A stretch of DNA of 35,419 bases from a virus: UHGV virus genome UHGV-0163616; one strand, written 5' to 3'. This document shows, in pieces, positions 25,535 through 35,419 of this stretch. The first letter of the stretch is position 1; each line of letters opens with the position of its first letter. Position numbers and translations under genes: made by a program. The notes beneath the pieces are model-generated. The model was given only the letters and a program-made list of their open reading frames with translations. It ran no database searches and was not told the origin of the DNA.

Positions 25535-26414
25535 CGTGTTCACCCTCACGAACTTTCAGGTAGGTATTGTCGTTAAGCAGGAAATCAAATCCCTTTTTGT
25601 GCCAGACGGTTCCGCGTTGATGGTTTGGACGCTCTTCGAACATCCATCGGCAATTTTCGCCTACGTAGCTCAAATAATTTCTCCAGTCCTGCATCGTGAA
25701 CCCATGCCCGTCAAGCTGGCGGGTTATCACTCCGGCTTTGCGCCAGAACGTTCGGATCTGGTTTTTACGCTTGTCATTCAGTGCGCGGATTCTTGGCGCT
25801 TCAGGAAGGATTTCGTGGTAAGCATCGACAACATCCTGACAGCTAACGGAAGGTTTTTTCTTGTCAGACTTTTTGTCTGCTGTGGCACTCTCTAATACGT
25901 CAGTATTAGAGATATTATTTATATTATTGTTTATGGACAACCGTTGGACAACCGTTGGACAATCTCCGCTGAGAGCCGCGCCATTACTGGTGTTTGCGTT
26001 GGACAACCGTTGGACAATCGTTGGACAATTTTTTGCTTGAAAATCGTCATATTTAACGATTGTAAACAGGCTAAATTTCTTCCCCATCGAGCAAATATTA
26101 AGCATCCCTTTCGACTCAAAAGTCCGTAATAAGCTCCGAACTTTGTTGTCGGGGATGAATGTTTCTCTGACCAGCGACGGGCGTCCAGTTATCATCTGAC
26201 CGCGATCAACAGTTATCGGACCGATATCCGTATTGACGACAGTAGATTCGTGATTAGCCTTGAGGATTAAGTGAAGCCAAAGATGTACTGCCTGAGAGTC
26301 CTTATAGAGCCTGCTGTCCATAAACTGGCGGTGTATAGAGACATACCCCATACTGGATGCCTCCTGATGTTGTACAGGGTTATGCCTGTAATCAGCTAAC
26401 TTAACGACTCCCAT
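25524..26414 (-). CDS. Replication initiator (O-like; P22 gene 18-like) carrying the origin iterons
   Basis: 296 aa; immediately upstream of the helicase; contains two clusters of direct DNA repeats plus an AT-rich tract in its middle, as in ori-lambda within O. Confidence 0.75.
   Translation of the reverse strand: MGVVKLADYRHNPVQHQEASSMGYVSIHRQFMDSRLYKDSQAVHLWLHLILKANHESTVVNTDIGPITVDRGQMITGRPSLVRETFIPDNKVRSLLRTFESKGMLNICSMGKKFSLFTIVKYDDFQAKNCPTIVQRLSNANTSNGAALSGDCPTVVQRLSINNNINNISNTDVLESATADKKSDKKKPSVSCQDVVDAYHEILPEAPRIRALNDKRKNQIRTFWRKAGVITRQLDGHGFTMQDWRNYLSYVGENCRWMFEERPNHQRGTVWHKKGFDFLLNDNTYLKVREGEHDDR
25933..26070. repeat. Phage replication origin: 2 x 3 tandem 11-bp iterons (TTGGACAAYYK) separated by 33 bp, followed by an AT-rich tract
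   Basis: Iterons at 25933-25965 and 25999-26031 then TTTTTTGCTTGAAAATCGTCATATTTAACGATTG; read directly from sequence. Confidence 0.75.
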
Positions 26415-26562
26415 GTTTCACTCCTGCTTTGGCTAGTCTGTAAACACCAACAAGGCGCTCTGCGAACGCCCTGTTATTTGCTGCGGCTACCACTAATCCC
26501 TCAGGTGAATCAGGGTGTCGAATCTCTTCTTTTTCCTGGTATTTCTTACGACGTTTTGTCAT
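26401..26562 (-). CDS. Small basic hypothetical protein between cII and the initiator gene
   Basis: 53 aa ORF (MTKRRKKYQEKEEIRHPDSPEGL...) not in the ORF track (under 60 aa); ATG preceded by AGGAG with 7-nt spacing. Confidence 0.4.
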   Translation of the reverse strand: MTKRRKKYQEKEEIRHPDSPEGLVVAAANNRAFAERLVGVYRLAKAGVKHGSR

Positions 26563-26596
26563 AATTACTCCTGTGGATTGATCCAGTCTTTCTACA

Positions 26597-26875
26597 TCAG
26601 GCCTCGAAGAATTCGCCGTTCTTCGGGGCTTTTTCTTTTGTCAGCATTCTGGCTACTTTCTTAGCCAGTTCCGCCAACTCCTCGTCTTCAACACCCCACT
26701 CCAGTACAGCCAGAAGCATGGCCATCTTTGGGATAAAGCTGTCTTTCCATCGCGAAATTTGCGATTCATTGATCCCTAATGCATCAGCAACCTTTCGCTG
26801 ACCACGTACAGCAATTCGATTCAGGATGTTGCTTGTAATTGCATTCGCTTTCTTGCGAGTACTTGTAAGTTCCAT
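26597..26875 (-). CDS. cII: CII-like transcriptional activator
   Basis: 92 aa; core SQISRWK......MLLAVLEWGVEDEELAELAKKVA aligns with lambda CII (SQISRWKRDWIPKFSMLLAVLEWGVVDDDMARLARQVA). Confidence 0.85.
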   Translation of the reverse strand: MELTSTRKKANAITSNILNRIAVRGQRKVADALGINESQISRWKDSFIPKMAMLLAVLEWGVEDEELAELAKKVARMLTKEKAPKNGEFFEA

Positions 26876-26923
26876 ATGTAAGTATTTCCTTAACTAATAA
26901 GAAGTTATGCGCATCAACTTATG

Positions 26924-26967
26924 CGCGTTGTATTCCCGCATTTCGGCGGGAATGAGGACCATGACTG
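26924..26967 (-). promoter_or_regulatory. nutR: boxA (CGCUCUUUAACA) and boxB hairpin (UCCCGC-CGAAAU-GCGGGA)
   Basis: On the minus strand between cro and cII; boxA matches the rrn/P22-type consensus; boxB sequence identical to the nutL copy. Confidence 0.65.
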
Positions 26968-26983
26968 TTAAAGAGCGGTGTTA

Positions 26984-27178
26984 CTATTTGTTTTTCTTGT
27001 TGCTTGGGAAAGGACGAACTTCCTCTCCAATCACACTGCCATCAGGCTTTACCGTAACCATGATGTTACGGCCTGCCAGAATGGCCTTGCTGATAGCGCA
27101 CTGGATTACACCAAAGTCACTGGCTGCTTTAGCCTGTCCATGGATTTTGGCGTAATCGGCAAGTGTCATTCGAATCAT
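26984..27178 (-). CDS. cro: Cro repressor
   Basis: 64 aa from ATG 27178 ([36 protein letters not shown]...[16 protein letters not shown]) aligns with lambda Cro; ORF-track start 27184 is a GTG. Confidence 0.85.
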
Positions 27179-27207
27179 ATGCACTCTCCGTTATTAACCA
27201 TGAACAA

Positions 27208-27278
27208 AGAATACTACAGGTATTCAAAGCAATCAATACTCAGGGTATTTTTAGTTTAAGTACCTTAGCTATTAGAAT
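27208..27278. promoter_or_regulatory. OR region: three 17-bp operators (two perfect 6-5-6 palindromes AATAC-N5-GTATT at 27209-27225 and 27234-27250, a degenerate third at 27258-27274) with divergent PR and PRM
   Basis: PR on minus strand: -35 TTGATT (27231-27236), 17-bp spacer, -10 TATTCT (27208-27213). PRM: TAGAAT at 27273-27278, 6 nt before the cI ATG, implying a leaderless cI mRNA as in lambda. Confidence 0.65.
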
Positions 27279-27284
27279 TAAGCT

Positions 27285-28001
27285 ATGGAAAATAAAAAAT
27301 CACTGACGACAGAACAGCTGGAAGACGCTAAGCGGCTTAAGGCTTTGTATGAGTCAAAAAAGAAAGAATTGGGAATAACCCAATACTCAATCGCTGATGA
27401 ACTGGGTATCACCCAAGGAGCGGTAGGGCATTATCTTAATGGCAGAAATGCGCTAAACGTTGAGGTTGCATCTGGTTTTGCACGATTGTTGCAAGTCTCA
27501 ATTGCTGATTTTAGCCAGTCAATTGCTGCCAAGGTTGCAGAACAGGCAGAAAGCCTTAAGAGCGATGCCAACGTAAGGTATGCAGGGGAATACAGAGCAG
27601 GAAAGAGGTATCCGGTGTTAAGCAGTATCCAGGCTGGCTCGTGGTGTGAAGCATGCGAACCATACACCATTAAAGACATAGATGTTTGGCTTGAGTCTGA
27701 CGCGCATATTCAAGGTAATGCGTTCTGGCTTAAAGTGGAAGGTGATTCAATGACGGCACCGGTTGGGTTAAGCATTCCAGAGGGAACATTCGTTCTTTTC
27801 GATACCGGAAGGGAGGCGATCAACGGCAGCTTGGTCATAGCAAAACTTTCTGACTCTAACGAAGCAACATTCAAGAAGCTGATAATCGACGGCGGAAATA
27901 AATACCTCAAGGGACTTAATCCTGCATGGCCTCTCGTGCCAATCAATGGAAACTGCAAGATTATAGGCGTTGCAATTGAGACAAAACTAAGGCTGGTTTG
28001 A
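27285..28001 (+). CDS. cI: CI repressor (HTH plus S24 LexA-like autocleavage domain)
   Basis: 238 aa; N-terminus resembles lambda CI; C-terminal domain (KRYPVLSSIQAGSWCEACEPYTIKDIDVWL...FWLKVEGDSMTAP...GNCKIIGVAIE) resembles 434 cI; Ala-Gly cleavage site and Ser/Lys dyad context present. Confidence 0.9.
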   Translation: MENKKSLTTEQLEDAKRLKALYESKKKELGITQYSIADELGITQGAVGHYLNGRNALNVEVASGFARLLQVSIADFSQSIAAKVAEQAESLKSDANVRYAGEYRAGKRYPVLSSIQAGSWCEACEPYTIKDIDVWLESDAHIQGNAFWLKVEGDSMTAPVGLSIPEGTFVLFDTGREAINGSLVIAKLSDSNEATFKKLIIDGGNKYLKGLNPAWPLVPINGNCKIIGVAIETKLRLV

Positions 28002-28387
28002 TCACGCAAGGGGCGATTATGGTTGGAACCGCTATAGCAAGCTTTTTGGGGATGTTGGCAATCTCAACAATTTACGGCTTAGCGCATGCTTTTATTGCGA
28101 AATCTCTATCAGAAAAAATAAGCCAGGCTTGGGCGCATAGATCAGCTCGTTTCATGATTCTGGTGATCATGGCAATACAAGGGATATCTGCATTTATCCT
28201 CTATGGATCAAGCTTATACCTATTGTATCAAGGCGCGACATTTACGCCTTACACCAGTGATTACGGAACTCTATACGATGGTAGTGAAGACATCTCTATG
28301 GCTTGGATCATCTTTGGTTTATCTATGGCCGTGTCTGTTGTAGCAGACATCATTAAGGTAATTCTCGTCTTAACCTTCGCTGACTAA
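27998..28387 (+). CDS. Small polytopic membrane protein translationally coupled to cI (occupies the rexAB slot between cI and OL)
   Basis: 129 aa with about 4 hydrophobic helices; ATG overlaps the cI stop (ATGA); no recognisable family from sequence alone. Confidence 0.6.
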   Translation: MITQGAIMVGTAIASFLGMLAISTIYGLAHAFIAKSLSEKISQAWAHRSARFMILVIMAIQGISAFILYGSSLYLLYQGATFTPYTSDYGTLYDGSEDISMAWIIFGLSMAVSVVADIIKVILVLTFAD

Positions 28388-28517
28388 CTCATAATCCCGG
28401 CAGCAATAGCTATCGGGATCCACTTCACATATCCCGCATAAAAAGCACTGAACAAGCAGACACCGAAAAAATAAATATCCTTTGTATTCATTTGCTTATC
28501 ATTATTTCACCAAAAAT

Positions 28518-28560
28518 AAATACCTTGGGTATTTACACAATAAAATACCTACAGTATTCT
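28518..28560 (+). promoter_or_regulatory. OL operators (AAATAC-CTTGG-GTATTT at 28518-28534; AAATAC-CTACA-GTATTC at 28543-28559) overlapping PL
   Basis: Same half-site consensus and 25-bp centre spacing as the OR sites; PL -35 TTTACA (28532-28537), 17-bp spacer, -10 TATTCT (28555-28560), pointing rightward into N. Confidence 0.65.
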
Positions 28561-28605
28561 TTAGCCATCAGCAGGACGCTGGAAGCCAAACGGAACAGAT
28601 TGGCA

Positions 28606-28647
28606 GGCTCTTTAACATTGATGGGATTGTCCCGCCGAAATGCGGGA
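28606..28647 (+). promoter_or_regulatory. nutL: boxA (GGCUCUUUAACA) and boxB hairpin (UCCCGC-CGAAAU-GCGGGA)
   Basis: Located between PL and N; boxB identical to the nutR copy. Confidence 0.65.
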
Positions 28648-28754
28648 ACCAAAGAGTAGTTGGCTTTGGGGTGACGTGAAGTGCAGCTGCACGACGGCAA
28701 CCGGAAGATAAGCACCCGGCGCGTCACCGCCAAAGTCAATCATCGGAGGTCAAC

Positions 28755-29027
28755 ATGACAGTAGTCATTACATATCTGGCTGACGATAACGCCAGAAATC
28801 GCCGCAGAGCACGCAGACAGGCTCAACGTGAGCAGGCAATGCAAGAACAGCGACTGGCGCGAAAAATTGCGCTAAAGCTCTCTGGTTGCGTCAGAGCAGA
28901 CAAAGCAGCTTCACTCGGAAGCCTTCGCTGCAAGAAGGTAGATGAATGCAGTGGAAGTATTTGCCTGCCAAACGTAGCTCTTTACGCGGCAGGCTACCGG
29001 AAATCAAAACAACTGACAGCGAGGTGA
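28755..29027 (+). CDS. N: N-type transcription antiterminator (P22 gp24-like) with arginine-rich motif
   Basis: 90 aa; ARM NARNRRRARRQAQREQ; C-terminus PNVALYAAGYRKSKQLTAR resembles the P22 gene 24 C-terminus; GGAGG Shine-Dalgarno; downstream of nutL. Confidence 0.8.
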   Translation: MTVVITYLADDNARNRRRARRQAQREQAMQEQRLARKIALKLSGCVRADKAASLGSLRCKKVDECSGSICLPNVALYAAGYRKSKQLTAR

Positions 29028-29048
29028 CGATCCCCCGCCGTCGAGGAA

Positions 29049-29588
29049 CTAAATTAGCTCATCAGCTTTACCAGCAAAGCGCATATAACACTCATGGAAC
29101 CAGACGTCAGGTATAACAAATTTCTCTTTACCTGACGCGCTGTAAGTCACACCTGAGCGATGGAGAAGACCTTTTCTCATAAGAGATAAAGCGACCGGAT
29201 CGCCGTGCTTAAGTACGATTTTGTTATTTGCCATAACAGCAAATGCTAAAACCTCTTTTTCCTGAATACTCAGAGAATTGAACAGGCGCTCAGTCTCCAC
29301 AATTACTTTAGCCTCATCTCTCTTACTGAGATATTTTTTATATCTGTCTGAAGATGCCAGAAATATAAACTCCATCACCCTGTTCAGAACATAACTGATA
29401 CACAAAAGCATTGCGTAATACATCCAGTGATCTGGAAGTATTTCGGGGTTCCTTATATCTACCCACTCTTTAATTGATGCTGGGGTGATTATTATCAAGG
29501 CAATTAAAATAATAAGCATATGAATTAACTGTTGTAGCGTAAGACCACGCAGGAAGAAACGTAATAGTTCCTGCCACCAGTTACTCAT
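29049..29588 (-). CDS. Membrane-anchored protein, candidate superinfection-exclusion/abortive-infection protein (SieB-like by size, topology and position)
   Basis: 179 aa; two N-terminal hydrophobic helices then a soluble domain; convergent with N, so expressible in the lysogen independently of PL; AT-rich. Family assignment not verified. Confidence 0.55.
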   Translation of the reverse strand: MSNWWQELLRFFLRGLTLQQLIHMLIILIALIIITPASIKEWVDIRNPEILPDHWMYYAMLLCISYVLNRVMEFIFLASSDRYKKYLSKRDEAKVIVETERLFNSLSIQEKEVLAFAVMANNKIVLKHGDPVALSLMRKGLLHRSGVTYSASGKEKFVIPDVWFHECYMRFAGKADELI

Positions 29589-29794
29589 CGGTGAATCTCC
29601 ATCATTCTCTCTGTAGGGGTGAATAGAGTTTATCCGATTTCTCGCTGTAGGGGTACACGAGAACCACCGAGCCTGATGTGGTTAAAAGACAGGCACAATC
29701 TTTACTACCGCAAGCCACGCAGTGAAATGGGGGTGACTTGTGTTGGTCGCCAGAAAATGAAATTAGGCAGCAAACCACTTATTTGAGGTGATAT

Positions 29795-30058
29795 ATGGAC
29801 AAGAAAATTAAATCATTGAAGCCAGGAATTGTTATCAGAGACATAAGTGGTGATTACGATACAGAGACATATGATATTTTATATGTGCATGCAGATGGAA
29901 AATGTCAGTATTCGAACGACATTTTTAATAATAAAGGTGGTGCCGAAATTGCTGCCACCACAGTTAATAAAGAGTTAGTAGCTAACGAGTCGTGGGATTA
30001 TTTTATGCCATCATCCACTTCTATGAACTGGAAAGTGGTTTTGTACATTCCATCATAA
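29795..30058 (+). CDS. Hypothetical protein (AT-rich accessory ORF in PL operon)
   Basis: 87 aa ORF, roughly 33-35 percent GC by eye; no recognised motif. Confidence 0.5.
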   Translation: MDKKIKSLKPGIVIRDISGDYDTETYDILYVHADGKCQYSNDIFNNKGGAEIAATTVNKELVANESWDYFMPSSTSMNWKVVLYIPS

Positions 30059-30148
30059 TTGTAGCTGCCGTTCAAAAATGAAAGTAAATCTAACATCACA
30101 GGCCGCATACTCGGCCTTTATTTTTGGCATAAATACACAGAGGCTAAC

Positions 30149-30445
30149 ATGGAATTTAAAGGTACTGAAGGTAAGTGGGAAATAATGATGGATGGCGATG
30201 AGATTAAAATCATCCAGGCAGACTCACTTGAAAATGGCGCAGGCTGGCGTTCGTATATTGCAATCTGTGAGGAAGTTCAATGCATTGAAGATGCCAATCT
30301 AATAGCGGCAGCGCCTGACCTTCTCGAAGCACTTCAGTTATTACTTAAGCAAACCAAAAATAGAACAACGACAACATATCCAGAATGGTATGGAACTGTT
30401 AATAAAGGTATCGCAGCAATCAGAAAAGCTCTTGGGGATAAGTAA
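30149..30445 (+). CDS. Hypothetical protein (first of a translationally coupled pair)
   Basis: 98 aa; stop overlaps next start (TAATG). Confidence 0.5.
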   Translation: MEFKGTEGKWEIMMDGDEIKIIQADSLENGAGWRSYIAICEEVQCIEDANLIAAAPDLLEALQLLLKQTKNRTTTTYPEWYGTVNKGIAAIRKALGDK

Positions 30446-30633
30446 TGAAAGTAAAAATAACTGCTTCTAATACCAGTTTTGTTAGTGTTGGTGATATTAC
30501 AGAAATAATAACAAACCATGATGGAACACAAGTTATGTGGTCTGCTTTCTGTAAAAGATATGAGCGAGTTAGTTGGTGTAAAAACGTATGGGGCGTCGAA
30601 TACGAAGAATTACCTGAAATGCATGACGAATAA
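30445..30633 (+). CDS. Hypothetical protein (second of coupled pair)
   Basis: 62 aa; followed by two hairpins, the second an intrinsic terminator. Confidence 0.45.
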   Translation: MKVKITASNTSFVSVGDITEIITNHDGTQVMWSAFCKRYERVSWCKNVWGVEYEELPEMHDE

Positions 30634-30728
30634 GCACTGTGTATTCATTCCAACGAGTGAATACACGGAGCAATGTCGCTCGTAACTAAACAGGAGCCGA
30701 CTTGTTCTGATTATTGGAAATCTTCTTT

Positions 30729-30756
30729 GCCCTCCAATGTGAGGGCAATTTTTTAT
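30729..30756 (+). terminator. Intrinsic terminator (GCCCUC-CAAUGU-GAGGGC then AAUUUUUUAU)
   Basis: Perfect 6-bp GC stem plus U-tract on plus strand; preceded by a 9-bp-stem hairpin at 30639-30666. Confidence 0.6.
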
Positions 30757-30774
30757 CTATGAGGATATGAACAG

Positions 30775-31143
30775 ATGTCAAACATCAAAAAATACATCAT
30801 TGATTACGACTGGAAAGCATCAATAGAAATTGAAATCGACCATGACGTAATGACAGAGGAAAAACTTCACCAGATTAATAATTTCTGGTCAGACTCTGAA
30901 TACAGACTCAAAAAACACGGCTCTGTATTAAATGCTGTATTAATCATGCTAGCGCAACATGCTCTGCTTATAGCAATTTCAAGCGACTTAAATGCATATG
31001 GTGTTGTGTGTGAGTTCGACTGGAATGATGGAAATGGTCAGGAAGGATGGCCTCCAATGGATGGTAGCGAAGGAATAAGAATTACCGATATCGACACATC
31101 TGGAATATTTGATTCAGATGATATGACTATCAAAGCCGCCTGA
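30775..31143 (+). CDS. Hypothetical protein
   Basis: 122 aa acidic ORF; AT-rich. Confidence 0.55.
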   Translation: MSNIKKYIIDYDWKASIEIEIDHDVMTEEKLHQINNFWSDSEYRLKKHGSVLNAVLIMLAQHALLIAISSDLNAYGVVCEFDWNDGNGQEGWPPMDGSEGIRITDIDTSGIFDSDDMTIKAA

Positions 31144-31218
31144 GCGCGGCTTTACCGCATACCAATAACGCTTCACTCGAGGCGTTTTCGTTATGCAATC
31201 AAACAGAAGGAGCATCCT

Positions 31219-31389
31219 ATGCAACAGTTCGCTATTGCAGGGGCGGCATCGGTTCGCCCTTTCAACCCGATTTTATCGGTACAGCATTCAAGAAAAAACA
31301 TTCTAACCGGAGCAGACTTTAAACAACCAAGAATGAAAAGTTTGCTCGAAAAGCTTTGGGATATTTTGAAACAACAAGGCCGCCCATGA
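31219..31389 (+). CDS. cIII: CIII-like protein (candidate FtsH inhibitor)
   Basis: 56 aa ORF not in the ORF track; N-terminus MQQFAIAG and C-terminus LWDILKQQGRP align with lambda CIII (MQYAIAG...LIDILNQPGVP); GGAG Shine-Dalgarno upstream. Confidence 0.5.
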   Translation: MQQFAIAGAASVRPFNPILSVQHSRKNILTGADFKQPRMKSLLEKLWDILKQQGRP

Positions 31390-31470
31390 GTTTTACAGAT
31401 AACTGGTCAGACGAAGAATTCATTCGTCAGATGAACAAAATGCTCAATCAGCACAAAGAACAGGAGAAAG

Positions 31471-31782
31471 ATGATGATTCTGACTCTGAATGATAAGCGT
31501 GAAATATCGCAAATCATCGCAAGTTTTACTGATGAAGATTACGAACGAATCAACAGTGAAGTTGATCGCCTCTGCAAACGCTGCGACCCAATAAGCGAAA
31601 TGCTTCGCTCATATAAGCCAGATGAACACACTAAGGACGCTATCGACTGGCTGGAAGATGATGACTGTGACTATCAGGAAAAAGCCGCTGAATGGTTCTG
31701 GGATGCAATAACCGAAAGAGTTAAGGCTGAATATGCCTTCGCAATATTCAAACGCAGACACATTTATGGAGAAGCAGCATGA
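31471..31782 (+). CDS. Hypothetical protein upstream of recT
   Basis: 103 aa; stop overlaps recT start (ATGA). Confidence 0.55.
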   Translation: MMILTLNDKREISQIIASFTDEDYERINSEVDRLCKRCDPISEMLRSYKPDEHTKDAIDWLEDDDCDYQEKAAEWFWDAITERVKAEYAFAIFKRRHIYGEAA

Positions 31783-32681
31783 GCAATATCGTTGAATTCG
31801 TTAAACAGCAGGAGCAGTTATTCTGCGGAGCATTGACTGAACAGACGGTGACATGGGCTAAGGAAAGCCAGTTTGCAATTCAGTATTTCCAGAAAAATGA
31901 TTACCTGGCTAAAACGGCACTGGCAAATCCAACCAGCGCACAGAACGCCATCATCAATGTTGCGGCGATCGGCATCACCTTAAACCCGGCCAGCAAACTT
32001 GCTTATCTAGTTCCGCGCGACGGCATGGTTTGCCTTGATATCAGCTATATGGGATTACTTCACCTTGCACAGTCGACAGGATCAATTAAGTGGGGGCAAT
32101 GTAAACTGGTGTACTCAAACGACACCTATGAATCAAACGGCCTTGATTCAGCGCCAACCCACAAATACAACGCATTTGGTGAGCGAGGCTCTATTGTTGG
32201 TGGTTATTGCACGGTTAAAACAGCAGATGGTGACTACCTGACTGAAGAAATGAGTCTGGCAGAAATTAAAGCTGTGGAAGCAACGAGCAAGGCAAAGAAT
32301 GGACCGTGGAAGACATTCTGGGAAGAGATGGCGCGTAAAACAATAGTTAAACGCGCCAGCAAATACTGGCCTAAAGCCCAGCGACTGGATAATGCCATTC
32401 ACCTGCTTAACGAAGATGAAGGTATGCATCAGGAACCAGTTATGCCGCACAAATCAGAGGAAGATATCCGCGAAGATGAACGGAAACGCCAGCAGGAAAT
32501 AATGGAAAAAGCACAACTTCTTTGTGATGAAATGGCTCAGGCAGAAAACATGGATGATTTGAAACGATATTTTGCAGAAGCATATCGCCTGACATCTGGA
32601 ATGAAATTGCAGCAGAACGTACAAGCCATTTACATAGAATGCAAAGCGAAACTGGAGGTTGCCAGTGAGCAAACTATATGA
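31779..32681 (+). CDS. recT: RecT-family single-strand annealing protein
   Basis: 300 aa; GPWKTFWEEMARKTIVKRASKYWP matches the RecT signature GPW.T.WEEMAKKTAIRR..KYLP of Rac RecT. Confidence 0.85.
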   Translation: MSNIVEFVKQQEQLFCGALTEQTVTWAKESQFAIQYFQKNDYLAKTALANPTSAQNAIINVAAIGITLNPASKLAYLVPRDGMVCLDISYMGLLHLAQSTGSIKWGQCKLVYSNDTYESNGLDSAPTHKYNAFGERGSIVGGYCTVKTADGDYLTEEMSLAEIKAVEATSKAKNGPWKTFWEEMARKTIVKRASKYWPKAQRLDNAIHLLNEDEGMHQEPVMPHKSEEDIREDERKRQQEIMEKAQLLCDEMAQAENMDDLKRYFAEAYRLTSGMKLQQNVQAIYIECKAKLEVASEQTI

Positions 32682-33147
32682 AATAGCCAATGAATACGCA
32701 AAATTGATGGATTCAGATTTAGAACCAGAGATGATTGCTGACACAATAGAAGGCATGGAAGGAGAATTTACCGATAAAATAGAGCAACTTCTCGCCATTA
32801 TTAAAAATGAATCTGGTTATGCTGAACGCCTCAAGGACGAGGCAAAGTCACTGAATGAACGAGCAGCAGTAATTCAAAATAAGATTGATAGCATTATGGC
32901 ATATATAGCCTCATCGCTTGAAATGGTTGGCAAGAAAAAGATTAGAGCAGGTATTCACCAGGTAACAATCCGCAAACCGTCAGAAACTGTAGAAATCATC
33001 GACTCAAGCGCCCTTCCTCCTGAATACGTTGAGTTTGAAACGACAATTAAAGCCGACAAGTTGGCAATCAAGCACCAACTAAAAGCAGGATTAAATATCC
33101 CCGGTGCTCAACTCAAAGTTGGGAAACCTTCACTTCTTATCAAATAA
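32665..33147 (+). CDS. Sipho_Gp157-like protein
   Basis: About 160 aa helical N-terminus; commonly found next to RecT/Erf in phages; GTG start at 32665 with GGAGG 6 nt upstream (ORF-track start is a TTG at 32659). Confidence 0.55.
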   Translation: MSKLYEIANEYAKLMDSDLEPEMIADTIEGMEGEFTDKIEQLLAIIKNESGYAERLKDEAKSLNERAAVIQNKIDSIMAYIASSLEMVGKKKIRAGIHQVTIRKPSETVEIIDSSALPPEYVEFETTIKADKLAIKHQLKAGLNIPGAQLKVGKPSLLIK

Positions 33148-33158
33148 CGGTATCGCCT

Positions 33159-33473
33159 ATGAAAAAGACTCCATGGGAGAAATGGGAAGTCGATTTCTTG
33201 CGCGAAGTAGCGGCGACAATGCCAGTTGAAGTTATCGCTGAAAAACTGGAAAGGACTGAAAAAGCAGTTATGGCGAAAGCAACAAGGATTGGCGCTGACA
33301 TTGTTAGCCGACTTCGTGGAAGACGCTGGACAAGAGCCGAAGTATCACTTTTCGGTAAGTTCTCCGCAGAAGAAATAGCAATTGCAACCTGCCGCTCAAT
33401 TTATTCAGTAAGAGCTATGCGATACAAGCTAAAAAAACTCGATGAAGAAAGAGCAGGCATACGAATAAATTAA
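33159..33473 (+). CDS. Hypothetical protein with internal two-fold repeat, possible DNA-binding
   Basis: 104 aa; two similar W..EV..L.......A.E.I segments; basic. Confidence 0.5.
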
Positions 33474-33653
33474 CAAAGAGGAATTTACCATGAGAGGACT
33501 TGCATACAATCCCGGCATTCTTCCGGCAGAAATGATTATTCGCCAACGCGTAAAACCAATGCCATCGAGAGAGGAATTGCTTAAAAGAAATAGTTTCGGT
33601 TCTGTTAATGACAACAGATATCTGAATGCGATGTGGCGCAAAGGAGGCAACCA

Positions 33654-34283
33654 GTGAGCGAAATTAACTATCAGGCACTGCGTGATGTGGCAGAGAAAGC
33701 AACGTGGGGAGACTGGGACTCATATAAACCACACCGTGGCGCACGAGGTTATGAGGTCCGACTAAGTAGTCAGGCCATTGCGCAACACGTTCTGAAAAAC
33801 AACGCTGAATTTATTGCTGCCTTTAATCCAAAGATTGCTTTGGCACTACTGGATGAACGGGAAAGGAACCAGCAATACATCAAATCCCGCGACCAGGAGA
33901 ACGAGGAAATTGCGCTAACGGTAGGGAAGCTGCGTGTTGAGCTGGAAGCAGCAGAGAATCGCAACGCAAAATTACAAAGCGAGAATGCATACATCCGCAA
34001 CCGGTACAAAGAACTGGACCTATTAATCGGGAAAAACATTCTGGTCATGCAAGCTGCCATTATCGAATGGCAATCGACTGGCGACGCTAAAAGCGGACTG
34101 GCATGGATTTATAACACACTGTTTGGCCCTGGCGAATTACCGGACGAATCTGAGAAAGATGCTCAGGCCTACTTTAATCGCAAATATGCACCGATTGACG
34201 AAAAGCTTATGGCGCTTCACAAGTGGTTTTGGGAACAAAGTGAAGCCGAGCGCGCCGCTGGCATTCGCATCAAAGGAGAGTGA
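33654..34283 (+). CDS. Ead/Ea22-like protein
   Basis: GTG start at 33654 with AGGAGG 5 nt upstream giving [21 protein letters not shown]..., the N-terminus typical of Ead/Ea22-like prophage proteins; coiled-coil middle. Confidence 0.65.
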
Positions 34284-34284
34284 G

Positions 34285-34476
34285 ATGAATGGACAAATAT
34301 CAATTGTTCGACCGGGAGCATGTGACGATTGCGAGATACGAATGATTATTCGTCTGGCGAGGGGGAAAACAATAACTGCTCTCATTACTCCAGAAAATCT
34401 CGCATTAGCATTAACAGGAAAGTCAGACCTGCCAGTAGAGCTAAAGCTGCGAAATGTTGAGATTAAGGTGAAATAG
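34285..34476 (+). CDS. Small hypothetical protein
   Basis: 63 aa from ATG 34285 preceded by AAGGAGAG; tightly packed between flanking genes. Confidence 0.5.
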   Translation: MNGQISIVRPGACDDCEIRMIIRLARGKTITALITPENLALALTGKSDLPVELKLRNVEIKVK

Positions 34477-34478
34477 CT

Positions 34479-35093
34479 ATGACCACTATTACCAAAGAAC
34501 GTATCGAATTATTCATTAAAAATCCGCTTGAAAACGGGCTTACTCGTGGCGAACAAATGGAACTGGCACGAATTGCACTGGCATCACTGGAACGCGAACA
34601 GATTCGCCACGAGCATGCCAAATGGTCTGACTCCACATTTGGCTGCGTTGGCCCCATTGGTCCACTGAAACACCTCTCAAAAGAGGCACTGGAAGCCGCA
34701 GCCGAACCAGACGATCTTAGCGAGTGGGCTGATATGCAGTTTCTGTTGTGGGATTCACAGCGCCGTGCTGGCATCAGCGATGCTGAAATTACCGCTGCTA
34801 TGGAAGATAAATTGAAGATCAACATGGAGCGCCAGTGGCCTGAGCCAAAAGATGGTGAGCCTCGCTTGCACATTAAAGAACCCGGCAACTCTCCGGTAAT
34901 TCCGGATGGTTGGATAAGCTGTAGTGAGCGAATGCCAAGCGAAGAAGATGTTTTGGTTTATTGCTCAGACACAAAAGAGCAGATGGTAGGGTTTCACAAA
35001 GGTAAAGGGTTATTTCAATTCTTTTACATGAATGGTGTTGAGGGGGTATGTGAGCCGTCACACTGGATGACGCTACCAGAGCCTCCACTTTGA
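34479..35093 (+). CDS. Hypothetical protein, DUF550/DUF551-like (common prophage early-left gene)
   Basis: 204 aa; N-terminal helical domain and C-terminal Cys/Trp-containing domain seen in enterobacterial prophage proteins; assignment from memory. Confidence 0.5.
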   Translation: MTTITKERIELFIKNPLENGLTRGEQMELARIALASLEREQIRHEHAKWSDSTFGCVGPIGPLKHLSKEALEAAAEPDDLSEWADMQFLLWDSQRRAGISDAEITAAMEDKLKINMERQWPEPKDGEPRLHIKEPGNSPVIPDGWISCSERMPSEEDVLVYCSDTKEQMVGFHKGKGLFQFFYMNGVEGVCEPSHWMTLPEPPL

Positions 35094-35189
35094 AAGCGAA
35101 GCTTATACATATCTTTTACATCAGCAATCTATTGTTAATCTCCAATCAATGTTACGTTGTCATCTCACTCATGCTTTGGAGGTAGTGAT

Positions 35190-35369
35190 ATGTCTTGTCC
35201 AAAATGCGGTTCTGGAAATATTGCAAAAGAAAAAACAATGCGTGGATGGTCTGATGATTATGTGTGCTGCGATTGCGGATACAACGACTCTAAAGACGCA
35301 TTTGGAGAGCGTGGTAAAAACGAGTTTGTCAAAATTAATAAAGAACGCGAAGGCAACGAAAAAAGCTAA
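35190..35369 (+). CDS. Small zinc-ribbon protein
   Basis: 59 aa from ATG 35190 (MSCPKCGSG...CCDCGY) with two CxxC pairs; GGAGG 7 nt upstream. Confidence 0.5.
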   Translation: MSCPKCGSGNIAKEKTMRGWSDDYVCCDCGYNDSKDAFGERGKNEFVKINKEREGNEKS

Positions 35370-35419
35370 TTTATTTATTCATATATGAAAACAATGTAAC
35401 CAATATTCGAATTGAAGAA

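Follow-up and report, generated by a model that had tools for sequence, protein, structure and literature searches.

The regulatory region described here, within a 35,419-nucleotide stretch of virus genome UHGV-0163616 (hereafter the window), is very probably the early regulatory part, covering immunity and antitermination, of a P22-like E. coli prophage of the HK620 immunity type. Positions 26553-29025 align without gaps to coliphage HK620 (AF335538) at 98.6% identity, with 34 substitutions, and the genes and sites follow the HK620 order cII-nutR-cro-OR-cI-hkaS-OL-nutL-N. Cro, the 100-bp OR region (27185-27284, also an exact match to mEpX2), OL1, OL2, nutL and nutR are identical to those of HK620, whose record (AF335538 / NC_002730) already annotates OR1-3, OL1-3, pR, pL, pRE, nutL, nutR and tR1. 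HK620 was reportedly described by Clark et al. in 2001, in J Mol Biol 311:657 (cited in PMC2629481). Directly established are the sequence identity with HK620 and with mEpX2, the family to which each protein belongs, and the sites themselves with their geometry; the boxBs, the boxAs and four perfect palindromes lie at positions equivalent to lambda nutR, nutL, OR and OL. The module is an already known and ordinary one, the initial reading of its anatomy is correct, and its hybrid make-up is ordinary lambdoid mosaicism. No open-access paper was found that analyses the HK620 switch or reports footprint or binding data for its repressor or its N/boxB pair.

The same module occurs in HK630, HK140, mEpX2, phi296 and phi367 at 97-99% identity, on other virion backgrounds, and is present in 146 of 5426 complete E. 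coli genomes. Outside the module, HK620 differs from the window in its virion genes and early-left genes, and a SieB-type gene lies downstream of N where HK620 has hkaQ/hkaP. In HK140 the 3' end of cII is different and 1 bp is missing between the OL3 candidate and OL2; unlike the P22-like HK620, both HK140 and mEpX2 are assigned to Hendrixvirinae. These genomes offer a clean example of module exchange, with one cI-cro-operator cassette in HK620, in mEpX2 and HK140, and in other genomes. Assigning the prophage to the HK620 immunity group also predicts which phages are excluded by repression and which prophages are able to coexist with it. As a discovery, the module matters little.

The initial annotation had proposed a previously unseen immunity specificity, to be given up if the repressor and operators matched an already described immunity type. 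Such a specificity, unlike that of all characterised lambdoid phages, would be consistent with a CI N-terminal domain that is only about half identical to that of lambda and essentially unrelated to those of 434 and P22, and with operators that differ from the annotated lambda and 434 ones. However, the check for a described type returned HK620, mEpX2, HK140 and HK630 as matches to the repressor/operator set, and HK620 (annotated in 2001), HK630, HK140, mEpX2, phi296 and phi367 all carry the same or almost the same repressor, Cro and operators. The set is moreover the one counted above in the E. coli genomes, and experiments have treated mEpX2 as an immunity group apart from lambda, HK022, phi80 and others (PMC3442831). 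A new specificity is thus hardly credible, and by the condition set beforehand the proposal is refuted. The narrower statement, that the immunity is distinct from that of lambda, 434 and P22, holds: the region falls outside the lambda, 434 and P22/21 immunity types by its CI N-terminal domain and, for lambda and 434, by its operators. The features of the HK620-type region are listed in Table 1.

Table 1. Genes and sites of the early regulatory region (window coordinates)
Feature	Position	Strand	Basis or remark
cII, lysogeny-establishment transcriptional activator, 92 aa	26597-26875	-	Pfam Phage_CII, E 2.5e-42
Putative CII binding site of PRE, TTGC-N6-TTGT	26853-26866	+	inside 5' end of cII, facing cI
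nutR boxB hairpin, UCCCGCCGAAAUGCGGGA	26934-26951	-	exact copy of nutL boxB; inside annotated HK620 nutR
nutR boxA, GCUCUUUAACA, rrn/phi21 type	26966-26976	-	begins 7 nt past cro stop codon
cro, 64 aa from ATG 27178, GGAG upstream	26984-27178	-	Pfam Cro; identity to lambda Cro
PR, -35 TTGATT (27236-27231), 17-nt spacer, -10 TATTCT (27213-27208)	27208-27236	-	read from sequence
OR1, GAATAC-TACAG-GTATTC	27209-27225		perfect half-sites; over PR -10; annotated in HK620
OR2, CAATAC-TCAGG-GTATTT	27234-27250		perfect half-sites; over PR -35, abuts PRM -35; annotated in HK620
PRM (inferred), -35 TTTAGT (27250-27255), -10 TAGAAT (27273-27278)	27250-27285	+	read from sequence
OR3, AAGTAC-CTTAG-CTATTA	27258-27274		weak; over PRM spacer and -10; annotated in HK620
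cI repressor, 238 aa, HTH and S24 self-cleaving domain	27285-28001	+	Pfam; PDB match
hkaS homologue, 122 aa, hydrophobic	28019-28387	+	downstream of cI, position of lambda rex; HK620 hkaS
Candidate OL3, AAATAT-CCTTT-GTATTC	28473-28489		2/12 mismatches; 45 bp from OL2
OL2, AAATACC-TTG-GGTATTT	28518-28534		perfect palindrome; annotated in HK620
PL, TTTACA-17-TATTCT	28532-28560	+	promoter scan; coincides with HK620 pL
OL1, AAATAC-CTACA-GTATTC	28543-28559		over PL -10; annotated in HK620
nutL boxA, GCUCUUUAACA	28607-28617	+	exact 11-mer match
nutL boxB hairpin	28630-28647	+	identical to nutR boxB
N antiterminator, 90 aa	28755-29027	+	Pfam N_peptide, E 4.6e-16

The repressor matches HTH_3 over residues 27-76 (E 8e-10) and Peptidase_S24 over residues 110-231 (E 5e-24), both above the curated Pfam cut-offs, and aligns along its full length with the full-length lambda repressor 3BDN (E 3e-52). 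Over residues 1-95 its identity to lambda CI is 53% (E 7e-30), with 34% identity to 434 over 32 aa and no match between the N-terminal domain and P22 c2, whereas residues 96-238 are 68.5% identical to the 434 repressor (E 2.5e-79) and 39% to lambda. The lambda-like N-terminus and 434-like C-terminus of the initial annotation are thereby borne out, and the likeness to 434 lies in the C-terminal oligomerisation and self-cleavage domain, while the 434 DNA-binding domain and 14-bp operators are unrelated to those of the window. Catalysis in lambda CI depends on a Ser/Lys dyad. The motifs IQAGSW (Ala117-Gly118), EGDSMT (Ser155) and TFKKL (Lys198) align with lambda QAGMF, EGNSMT and TFKKL, and the residues aligned with lambda Gln33, Gln44, Asn52, Asn55, the Ala-Gly cleavage site and the dyad are all present. 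Judged by these domains and motifs, CI fits the LexA-like self-cleaving phage repressors (lambda CI class).

In the recognition helix, Gly45, His49, Tyr50 and Leu51 stand in place of lambda Ser45, Ala49, Leu50 and Phe51. The protein is identical to mEpX2 CI and differs from HK620 CI by A66T and from HK140 CI by I179V, both outside residues 32-55, the DNA-recognition helix region. The nearest distinct relative is phage Fostie, with 68% identity in the CI N-terminal domain, one recognition-helix change, and TAGTAC-N5-GTACTA palindromes at equivalent places. Cro is lambda-like, as initially described, with 63% identity to lambda Cro, a PDB match to lambda Cro at E 5e-19 and a match to Pfam PF09048 that spans all 59 profile positions (E 3.6e-26; score 91.4 bits, cut-off 32.7). 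Comparison with 434 and P22 Cro gave no detectable similarity. The mechanically called cro frame begins at GTG 27184, whereas the HK620 record uses the ATG; both the protein and the DNA of cro are identical to HK620.

The "three-way hybrid" of the initial annotation stands for the lambda/434 mosaic of CI and the lambda-like Cro, but the sources given for CII and N were imprecise. CII, described as lambda-like, has just 52% identity to lambda CII and stands nearest to P22 C1, at 86%; it differs from HK620 CII by one residue (E2Q). N, described as P22 gene 24-like, is 38% identical to that protein overall, but 68% identical to VT1-Sakai N (96% over residues 37-90) and 55% identical to phi21 N over residues 1-64, and is better called phi21/VT1-Sakai-type.

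The operators form a compact family. The consensus AATAC-N5-GTATT is perfect at 27210, 27235, 28519 and 28544, and with up to one mismatch it is found seven times against 0.85 expected, a count reached in 0 of 100 shuffles. Centre spacings are 25 bp for OR1-OR2, 24 bp for OR2-OR3 and 25 bp for OL1-OL2, which agrees with the half-sites and the 24-25 bp spacing initially ascribed to OR and OL. The half-site AATAC is not that of lambda. Measured back from the cI ATG, OR3, OR2 and OR1 are 19, 43 and 68 bp away on the upstream side, compared with 19, 42 and 66 bp in lambda. Among the four phages compared, substitutions occur in the operator spacers and never in the AATAC/GTATT half-sites. OR3 is mismatched at 3 of 12 specified positions, which is the background level in the window, and its assignment therefore rests on position rather than on sequence.

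The assignment of OL3 is uncertain. Apart from OR1, OR2, OL1 and OL2, the candidate in Table 1 is the only site in the 35-kb window with two mismatches or fewer, and it is unchanged in HK620, mEpX2 and HK140. The position annotated as OL3 in HK620 (window 28496-28512) makes a poor operator, with 9 of 12 consensus mismatches, and carries substitutions; the HK620 differences at 28495 and 28510 fall outside the consensus operator sites. The OL layout of Fostie was compared in order to choose between the two, but its spacing differs and gave no help. For annotators, the candidate, which fits the consensus much better, sits 23 bp farther from OL2 than the annotated site.

PL is the only sigma-70-type site returned by a scan of 26500-29100. 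PR scores 8/12 and so falls below the threshold of the scan; it coincides with the HK620-annotated pR (L001 3612-3647), and its start (+1) would lie near 27201, about 16 bp downstream of the OR1 centre. The common -10 TATTCT that had been noted for PR and PL is present in both. PRM is absent from the HK620 annotation. Its putative -10 ends 6 nt before the cI ATG, with no Shine-Dalgarno sequence, and from this geometry its transcript would start at the A of the ATG and be leaderless. The putative CII site lies within the HK620-annotated pRE/cII-binding features (L001 3263-3302, window 26852-26891). The region thus resembles lambda in architecture, in operator-promoter geometry, in 17-bp operators and, with PRM as inferred here, in a leaderless cI; it differs from lambda in the consensus (rrn) type of its boxA, in the 434-like C-terminal domain of CI and in having hkaS in place of rexAB.

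Each of the two early transcripts contains a boxA followed, across a short spacer, by a boxB hairpin; one set lies downstream of PL and the other downstream of cro, where HK620 annotates its nut sites. The boxB TCCCGCCGAAATGCGGGA occurs exactly twice in the window, against 0.01 expected by chance and with two matches in 0 of 100 shuffles, in line with the identical hairpins initially reported at nutL and nutR; the nutR copy is identical in HK620, mEpX2 and CUS-3. The 18-mer folds into a 6-bp stem and a 6-nt loop (-9.7 kcal/mol, z = -2.9). The boxA GCTCTTTAACA also occurs exactly twice, 12 nt from boxB at nutL and 14 nt at nutR. This 11-mer is not improbable by itself, since 15 of 100 shuffles had at least two matches at up to one mismatch, and its weight rests on its position upstream of both boxBs. 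It corresponds to positions 2-12 of the rrnG boxA-spacer ugcucuuuaacaa (PMC2724277), which confirms the rrn type initially assigned to it, and an identical 11-mer is found in phi21 nutL and nutR. An Rfam scan of 26000-30000 at permissive thresholds gave a single match at chance level (SCARNA7, E 0.84), so that neither the nut sites nor an oop-like RNA fall under a curated RNA family.

N, a small basic protein whose gene is the first past PL/nutL, carries an arginine-rich motif at residues 12-25, NARNRRRARRQAQR, and is unrelated to lambda N outside that short stretch. The protein is itself a mosaic: residues 1-33, with the motif, are found in HK620/CUS-3-type phages only, residues 34-61 are phi21-like, and residues 62-90 form a VT1-Sakai/933W/P22-type C-terminus. 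It differs from HK620 N at four residues, mEpX2 N diverges after about residue 29, and CUS-3 N has an uninterrupted phi21-type C-terminus, unlike N of the window. The PL leader is nearly identical to that of phi21 through boxA and diverges at boxB (alignment A1); between the window and phi21, boxB and the first 33 N codons change jointly, against a constant background of leader, boxA and N residues 34-61. The motif/boxB pair is common to HK620, CUS-3, mEpX2 and relatives, and mEpX2 and CUS-3 retain it in other contexts. In CUS-3, the same motif and both boxBs lie beside P22/21-type cI and cro. N and nut are therefore not part of the cI/cro immunity specificity, contrary to the initial annotation, and the pair moves separately from the cI-cro-operator cassette.

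The pair could functionally be of the P22 nutR type, cross-reacting with the P22 gene 24 protein. The top of the boxB stem and the start of the loop (CCGCCGA..GCGG) are common to P22 nutR (ACCGCCGACAACGCGGU), the motif shares N-A-(K/R)-x-R-R-x-x-R-R with P22 gp24, and N aligns with gp24 at E 5e-15. This nevertheless appears unlikely, because the loop in the window is one base shorter (CGAAAU vs CGACAAC), most other motif positions differ, and a tblastn search with N matched P22 over residues 47-90 only, which leaves out the motif. Phi21, VT1-Sakai and P22 all differ from the window in boxB and in N residues 1-33. There is about an even chance that the motif and boxB represent a peptide-RNA recognition class distinct from the studied lambda, P22 and phi21 pairs. 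The boxB, with its 6-bp G+C-rich stem and a C and a U closing around GAAA at both nut sites, may fold as a true GNRA tetraloop instead of a GNRA-like pentaloop with one extruded base. A PDB sequence search with N found no meaningful match and no structure for the N/boxB pair.

The rearrangement of N, which has left a phi21-type 3' remnant at 29701-29799, might also point to a decayed module in a cryptic prophage, with a switch that no longer works. Yet the same rearranged N is found in the viable phages HK620 and HK140, none of the five reading frames is broken and their identity to the counterparts in plaque-forming phages (HK140 and ECP1 included) is 95.6-100%, and the rest of the window holds a full set of P22-like virion genes. 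Decay is accordingly very unlikely, and the module has the look of a working one.

By homology with lambda, P22 and phi21, the whole HK620-type region would operate as a lambda-style bistable switch. CI, with its lambda-like HTH and 434-like LexA-type self-cleaving domain, is predicted to bind the 17-bp (A)AATAC-N5-GTATT(T) operators, at three sites in OR and two or three in OL, and to shut off PR and PL; when bound at OR2, it would activate PRM and yield a leaderless cI-hkaS transcript. During lytic growth, Cro, with the lambda Cro fold, would bind the same operators, and during the establishment of lysogeny the P22 C1-like CII would activate PRE at TTGC-N6-TTGT. Further, the N-terminal arginine-rich motif of N may bind the boxB hairpin that the PL and PR transcripts have in common, and N together with host Nus factors on the consensus boxA would allow RNA polymerase to read through downstream terminators.

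A minus-strand, 35-codon hydrophobic ORF (28491-28384), which starts in the OL3 candidate and was considered as a membrane peptide or toxin, is probably spurious, since each of the four substitutions relative to HK620/mEpX2 changes the amino acid, one of them from Ala to Asp within the hydrophobic stretch; it has no Pfam match. The hkaS homologue likewise has no Pfam match; it belongs to phrog_6534 (E 4e-78), a family whose function is not assigned, and differs from HK620 HkaS at six residues.

The immunity region of this P22-like Escherichia coli prophage (26924–28647, nutR to nutL) is an already known module rather than a new one. A megablast search of 26590–29030 against phage genomes returned full-length matches of 97–99% in HK620, HK630, phi296, phi367 and HK140, and a match in mEpX2 that reaches the start of N. 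The alignment with coliphage HK620 (AF335538) is ungapped over 26553–29025 and contains 34 substitutions, none of which touches cro, OR1–OR3, OL1, OL2, nutL or nutR. Cro is identical in the two, CI differs from that of HK620 by A66T and is identical to that of mEpX2, and the 100-bp cro–cI intergenic stretch matches both phages exactly. At equivalent positions, the HK620 GenBank record annotates OR1–3, OL1–3, pR, pL, pRE with its cII site, nutL, nutR, tR1 and tIMM. The initial annotation had proposed a new immunity type; the repressor/operator set instead matches that of HK620/mEpX2, an already described type, which refutes the proposal. A study that uses mEpX2 places this phage in an immunity group separate from lambda, HK022, phi80, mEp043, mEp213, mEp235 and mEpX1 (PMC3442831). 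At least 80% of the region is present in 146 of 5426 complete E. coli genomes. What had been observed, accurately, is an ordinary and previously annotated regulatory module, whose remaining interest lies in the N-motif/boxB pair of the HK620/CUS-3 group.

Genes in and around the immunity region
Feature	Coordinates	Strand	Basis
cII	26597–26875	−	ORF list
cro	26984–27178	−	ORF list
cI	27285–28001	+	ORF list
hkaS homologue (122 codons, hydrophobic)	28019–28387	+	ORF list
N	28755–29027	+	ORF list
sieB-like gene	29049–29588	−	Pfam SieB, E 3e-20

From the DNA and the ORF list, the early region is lambdoid and runs in the opposite orientation to the standard lambda map; replication genes flank it on the left and, on the right, a convergent sieB-like gene. 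In the rest of the prophage (1–25000 and 29000–35419), the virion genes are most similar to those of phages 720R6, phiv205-1 and CUS-3, and the early-left genes to those of Kapi1, 611R6 and HK140. Over the first 25 kb, coverage by any one phage record is at most 63%. The modules may be combined here in a new way. The homologue of HK620 hkaS (phrog_6534, function unknown, no Pfam match) lies directly downstream of cI, the position of rexAB in lambda and hex in 434, and its expression in the lysogen is therefore presumed. Compared with HK620, no protein of the module varies more (six substitutions). A terminator-like hairpin (26599–26631, plus strand; 14 pairs, then TTTCTTTTGT) is antisense to the cII 3′ end, where the terminator of the oop RNA is located in P22 and lambda; it matched no Rfam family.

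The Pfam families detected were HTH_3 and Peptidase_S24 for CI, and Cro, Phage_CII and N_peptide for the others. CI does combine a lambda-like N-terminus with a 434-like C-terminal domain, as initially described: residues 1–95 are closest to lambda CI (53%, E 7e-30; 434, 34% over 32 residues) and residues 96–238 to the 434 repressor (68.5%, E 2.5e-79; P22 c2 52%, lambda 39%). Cro is likewise lambda-like (63% identity, Pfam Cro E 3.6e-26, PDB matches to lambda Cro), whereas CII is so at the family level only, sharing 86% identity with P22 C1 and 52% with lambda CII. The reading as a three-way hybrid thus holds for the CI mosaic, but more than three sources contribute; this is the usual lambdoid mosaicism, already described in the HK620 record's own notes.

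Lambda numbering is preserved in CI through the helix-turn-helix when aligned to lambda repressor. Gln33, Gln44, Asn52 and Asn55 are conserved, while Ser45 is replaced by Gly, Ala49 by His, Leu50 by Tyr and Phe51 by Leu. The half-site AAATACC shares A2, A5, C6 and C7 with lambda TATCACC and differs at positions 1, 3 and 4, and with base contacts taken from the established lambda repressor–operator complex, the conserved and changed residues appear to fit it. CI also has the self-cleavage site Ala117-Gly118 and the Ser155/Lys198 dyad. By homology, the whole would most likely act as a lambda-style switch; no binding data for this repressor or the N/boxB pair were found in the open literature. 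The closest distinct relative is the CI-like repressor of phage Fostie (PP925832), annotated only as a hypothetical protein, whose N-terminal domain is 68% identical, with a single change in the recognition helix (Gly45 to Ser). Fostie carries TAGTAC-N5-GTACTA palindromes at equivalent places (1900–2000 and 2760–2835 of its locus); these resemble the AGTAC half-site of the window OR3, which raises the question of partial cross-recognition.

The reported operator and promoter motifs are all present, with four perfect AATAC-N5-GTATT operators (27210, 27235, 28519 and 28544) and seven matches at up to one mismatch against 0.85 expected. PL reads TTTACA-17-TATTCT and PR, on the opposite strand, TTGATT-17-TATTCT; OR1 covers the PR −10, OR2 the PR −35 and OL1 the PL −10. 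OR3, OR2 and OR1 lie 19, 43 and 68 bp upstream of the cI ATG, a geometry matching that of lambda (19, 42 and 66 bp). Because TAGAAT ends 6 nt before this ATG and a ribosome-binding site is absent, a CI-activated, leaderless PRM transcript would be the natural reading. Where the window, HK620, mEpX2 and HK140 differ from one another in the operator regions, the changes are confined to spacers and spare the half-sites. OR3 has mismatches at 3 of 12 positions, a level that about a dozen random sites in the window also reach, so that it is assigned by position only.

For OL3, the site annotated in HK620 (window 28496–28512) mismatches the consensus at 9 of 12 positions and contains two of the HK620 substitutions. 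A candidate at 28473–28489 has two mismatches, is invariant in the four phages and is the only site in 35 kb, besides OR1, OR2, OL1 and OL2, with two or fewer; its distance of 45 bp from OL2, 23 bp further than the annotated site, counts against it. The public HK620 record may mark the wrong site as OL3. The ATG of a hydrophobic 35-codon ORF convergent with hkaS (28384–28491, minus strand; MNTKDIYFFGVCLFSAFYAGYVKWIPIAIAAGIMS) lies inside this candidate; the ORF was rejected as probably not a gene, because each of its four differences from HK620 and mEpX2 is non-synonymous and it has no Pfam match.

Both reported boxB and boxA pairs were recovered. The 18-mer boxB TCCCGCCGAAATGCGGGA occurs exactly twice, once per strand (chance expectation 0.01), one copy closely following cro and the other closely following PL; its fold is a stem of 6 bp with a loop of 6 nt (−9.7 kcal/mol). 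The boxA GCTCTTTAACA, also in exactly two copies, lies 14 and 12 nt upstream of the hairpins and equals positions 2–12 of the rrnG boxA-spacer ugcucuuuaacaa; lambda boxA is cgcucuua (PMC2724277). In N, initially likened to P22 gene 24, residues 62–90 are the C-terminus of the VT1-Sakai/933W/P22 type; the whole protein is a mosaic of its own, 38% identical to P22 gp24. Residues 34–61 are phi21-like, and residues 1–33, including the arginine-rich motif NARNRRRARRQAQR, are found only in HK620-type phages, CUS-3, N7, IME10 and ECP1. A PDB sequence search gave no solved structure matching N.

Aligned with phi21, the window is almost identical from the PL transcript start through boxA and the first 8 spacer nt, diverges completely at boxB and is about 80% alike over the rest of the leader; N codons 1–33 diverge, and from codon 34 on the two are again nearly identical. 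The pattern is reversed in mEpX2, which matches the window up to about N codon 29 and differs beyond it. CUS-3 has P22/21-type cI and cro, yet shares with the window the N motif and, at both nut sites, the boxB. These comparisons indicate that boxB is co-inherited with the arginine-rich motif, independently of the repressor, which places the nut sites outside immunity specificity in the strict sense, contrary to the initial annotation. Co-inheritance is also the best evidence available here that the boxB hairpin would be the target of N. Since boxB ACCGCCGACAACGCGGU resembles P22 nutR UCCCGCCGAAAUGCGGGA, and N-A-(K/R)-x-R-R-x-x-R-R is common to the N motif and P22 gp24, the pair looks like a P22-type variant with a loop one base shorter.

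The similarity of N to phi21 ends at 28946, and a remnant of 99 bp (29701–29799), sharing 97% identity with the 3′ end of the phi21-type N gene, is found on the far side of the sieB-like gene. A cassette of about 755 bp appears to have been inserted into a phi21-type N gene, bringing with it an alternative N C-terminus (CLPNVALYAAGYRKSKQLTAR) and the convergent SieB gene. CUS-3 has the same N in an uninterrupted version.
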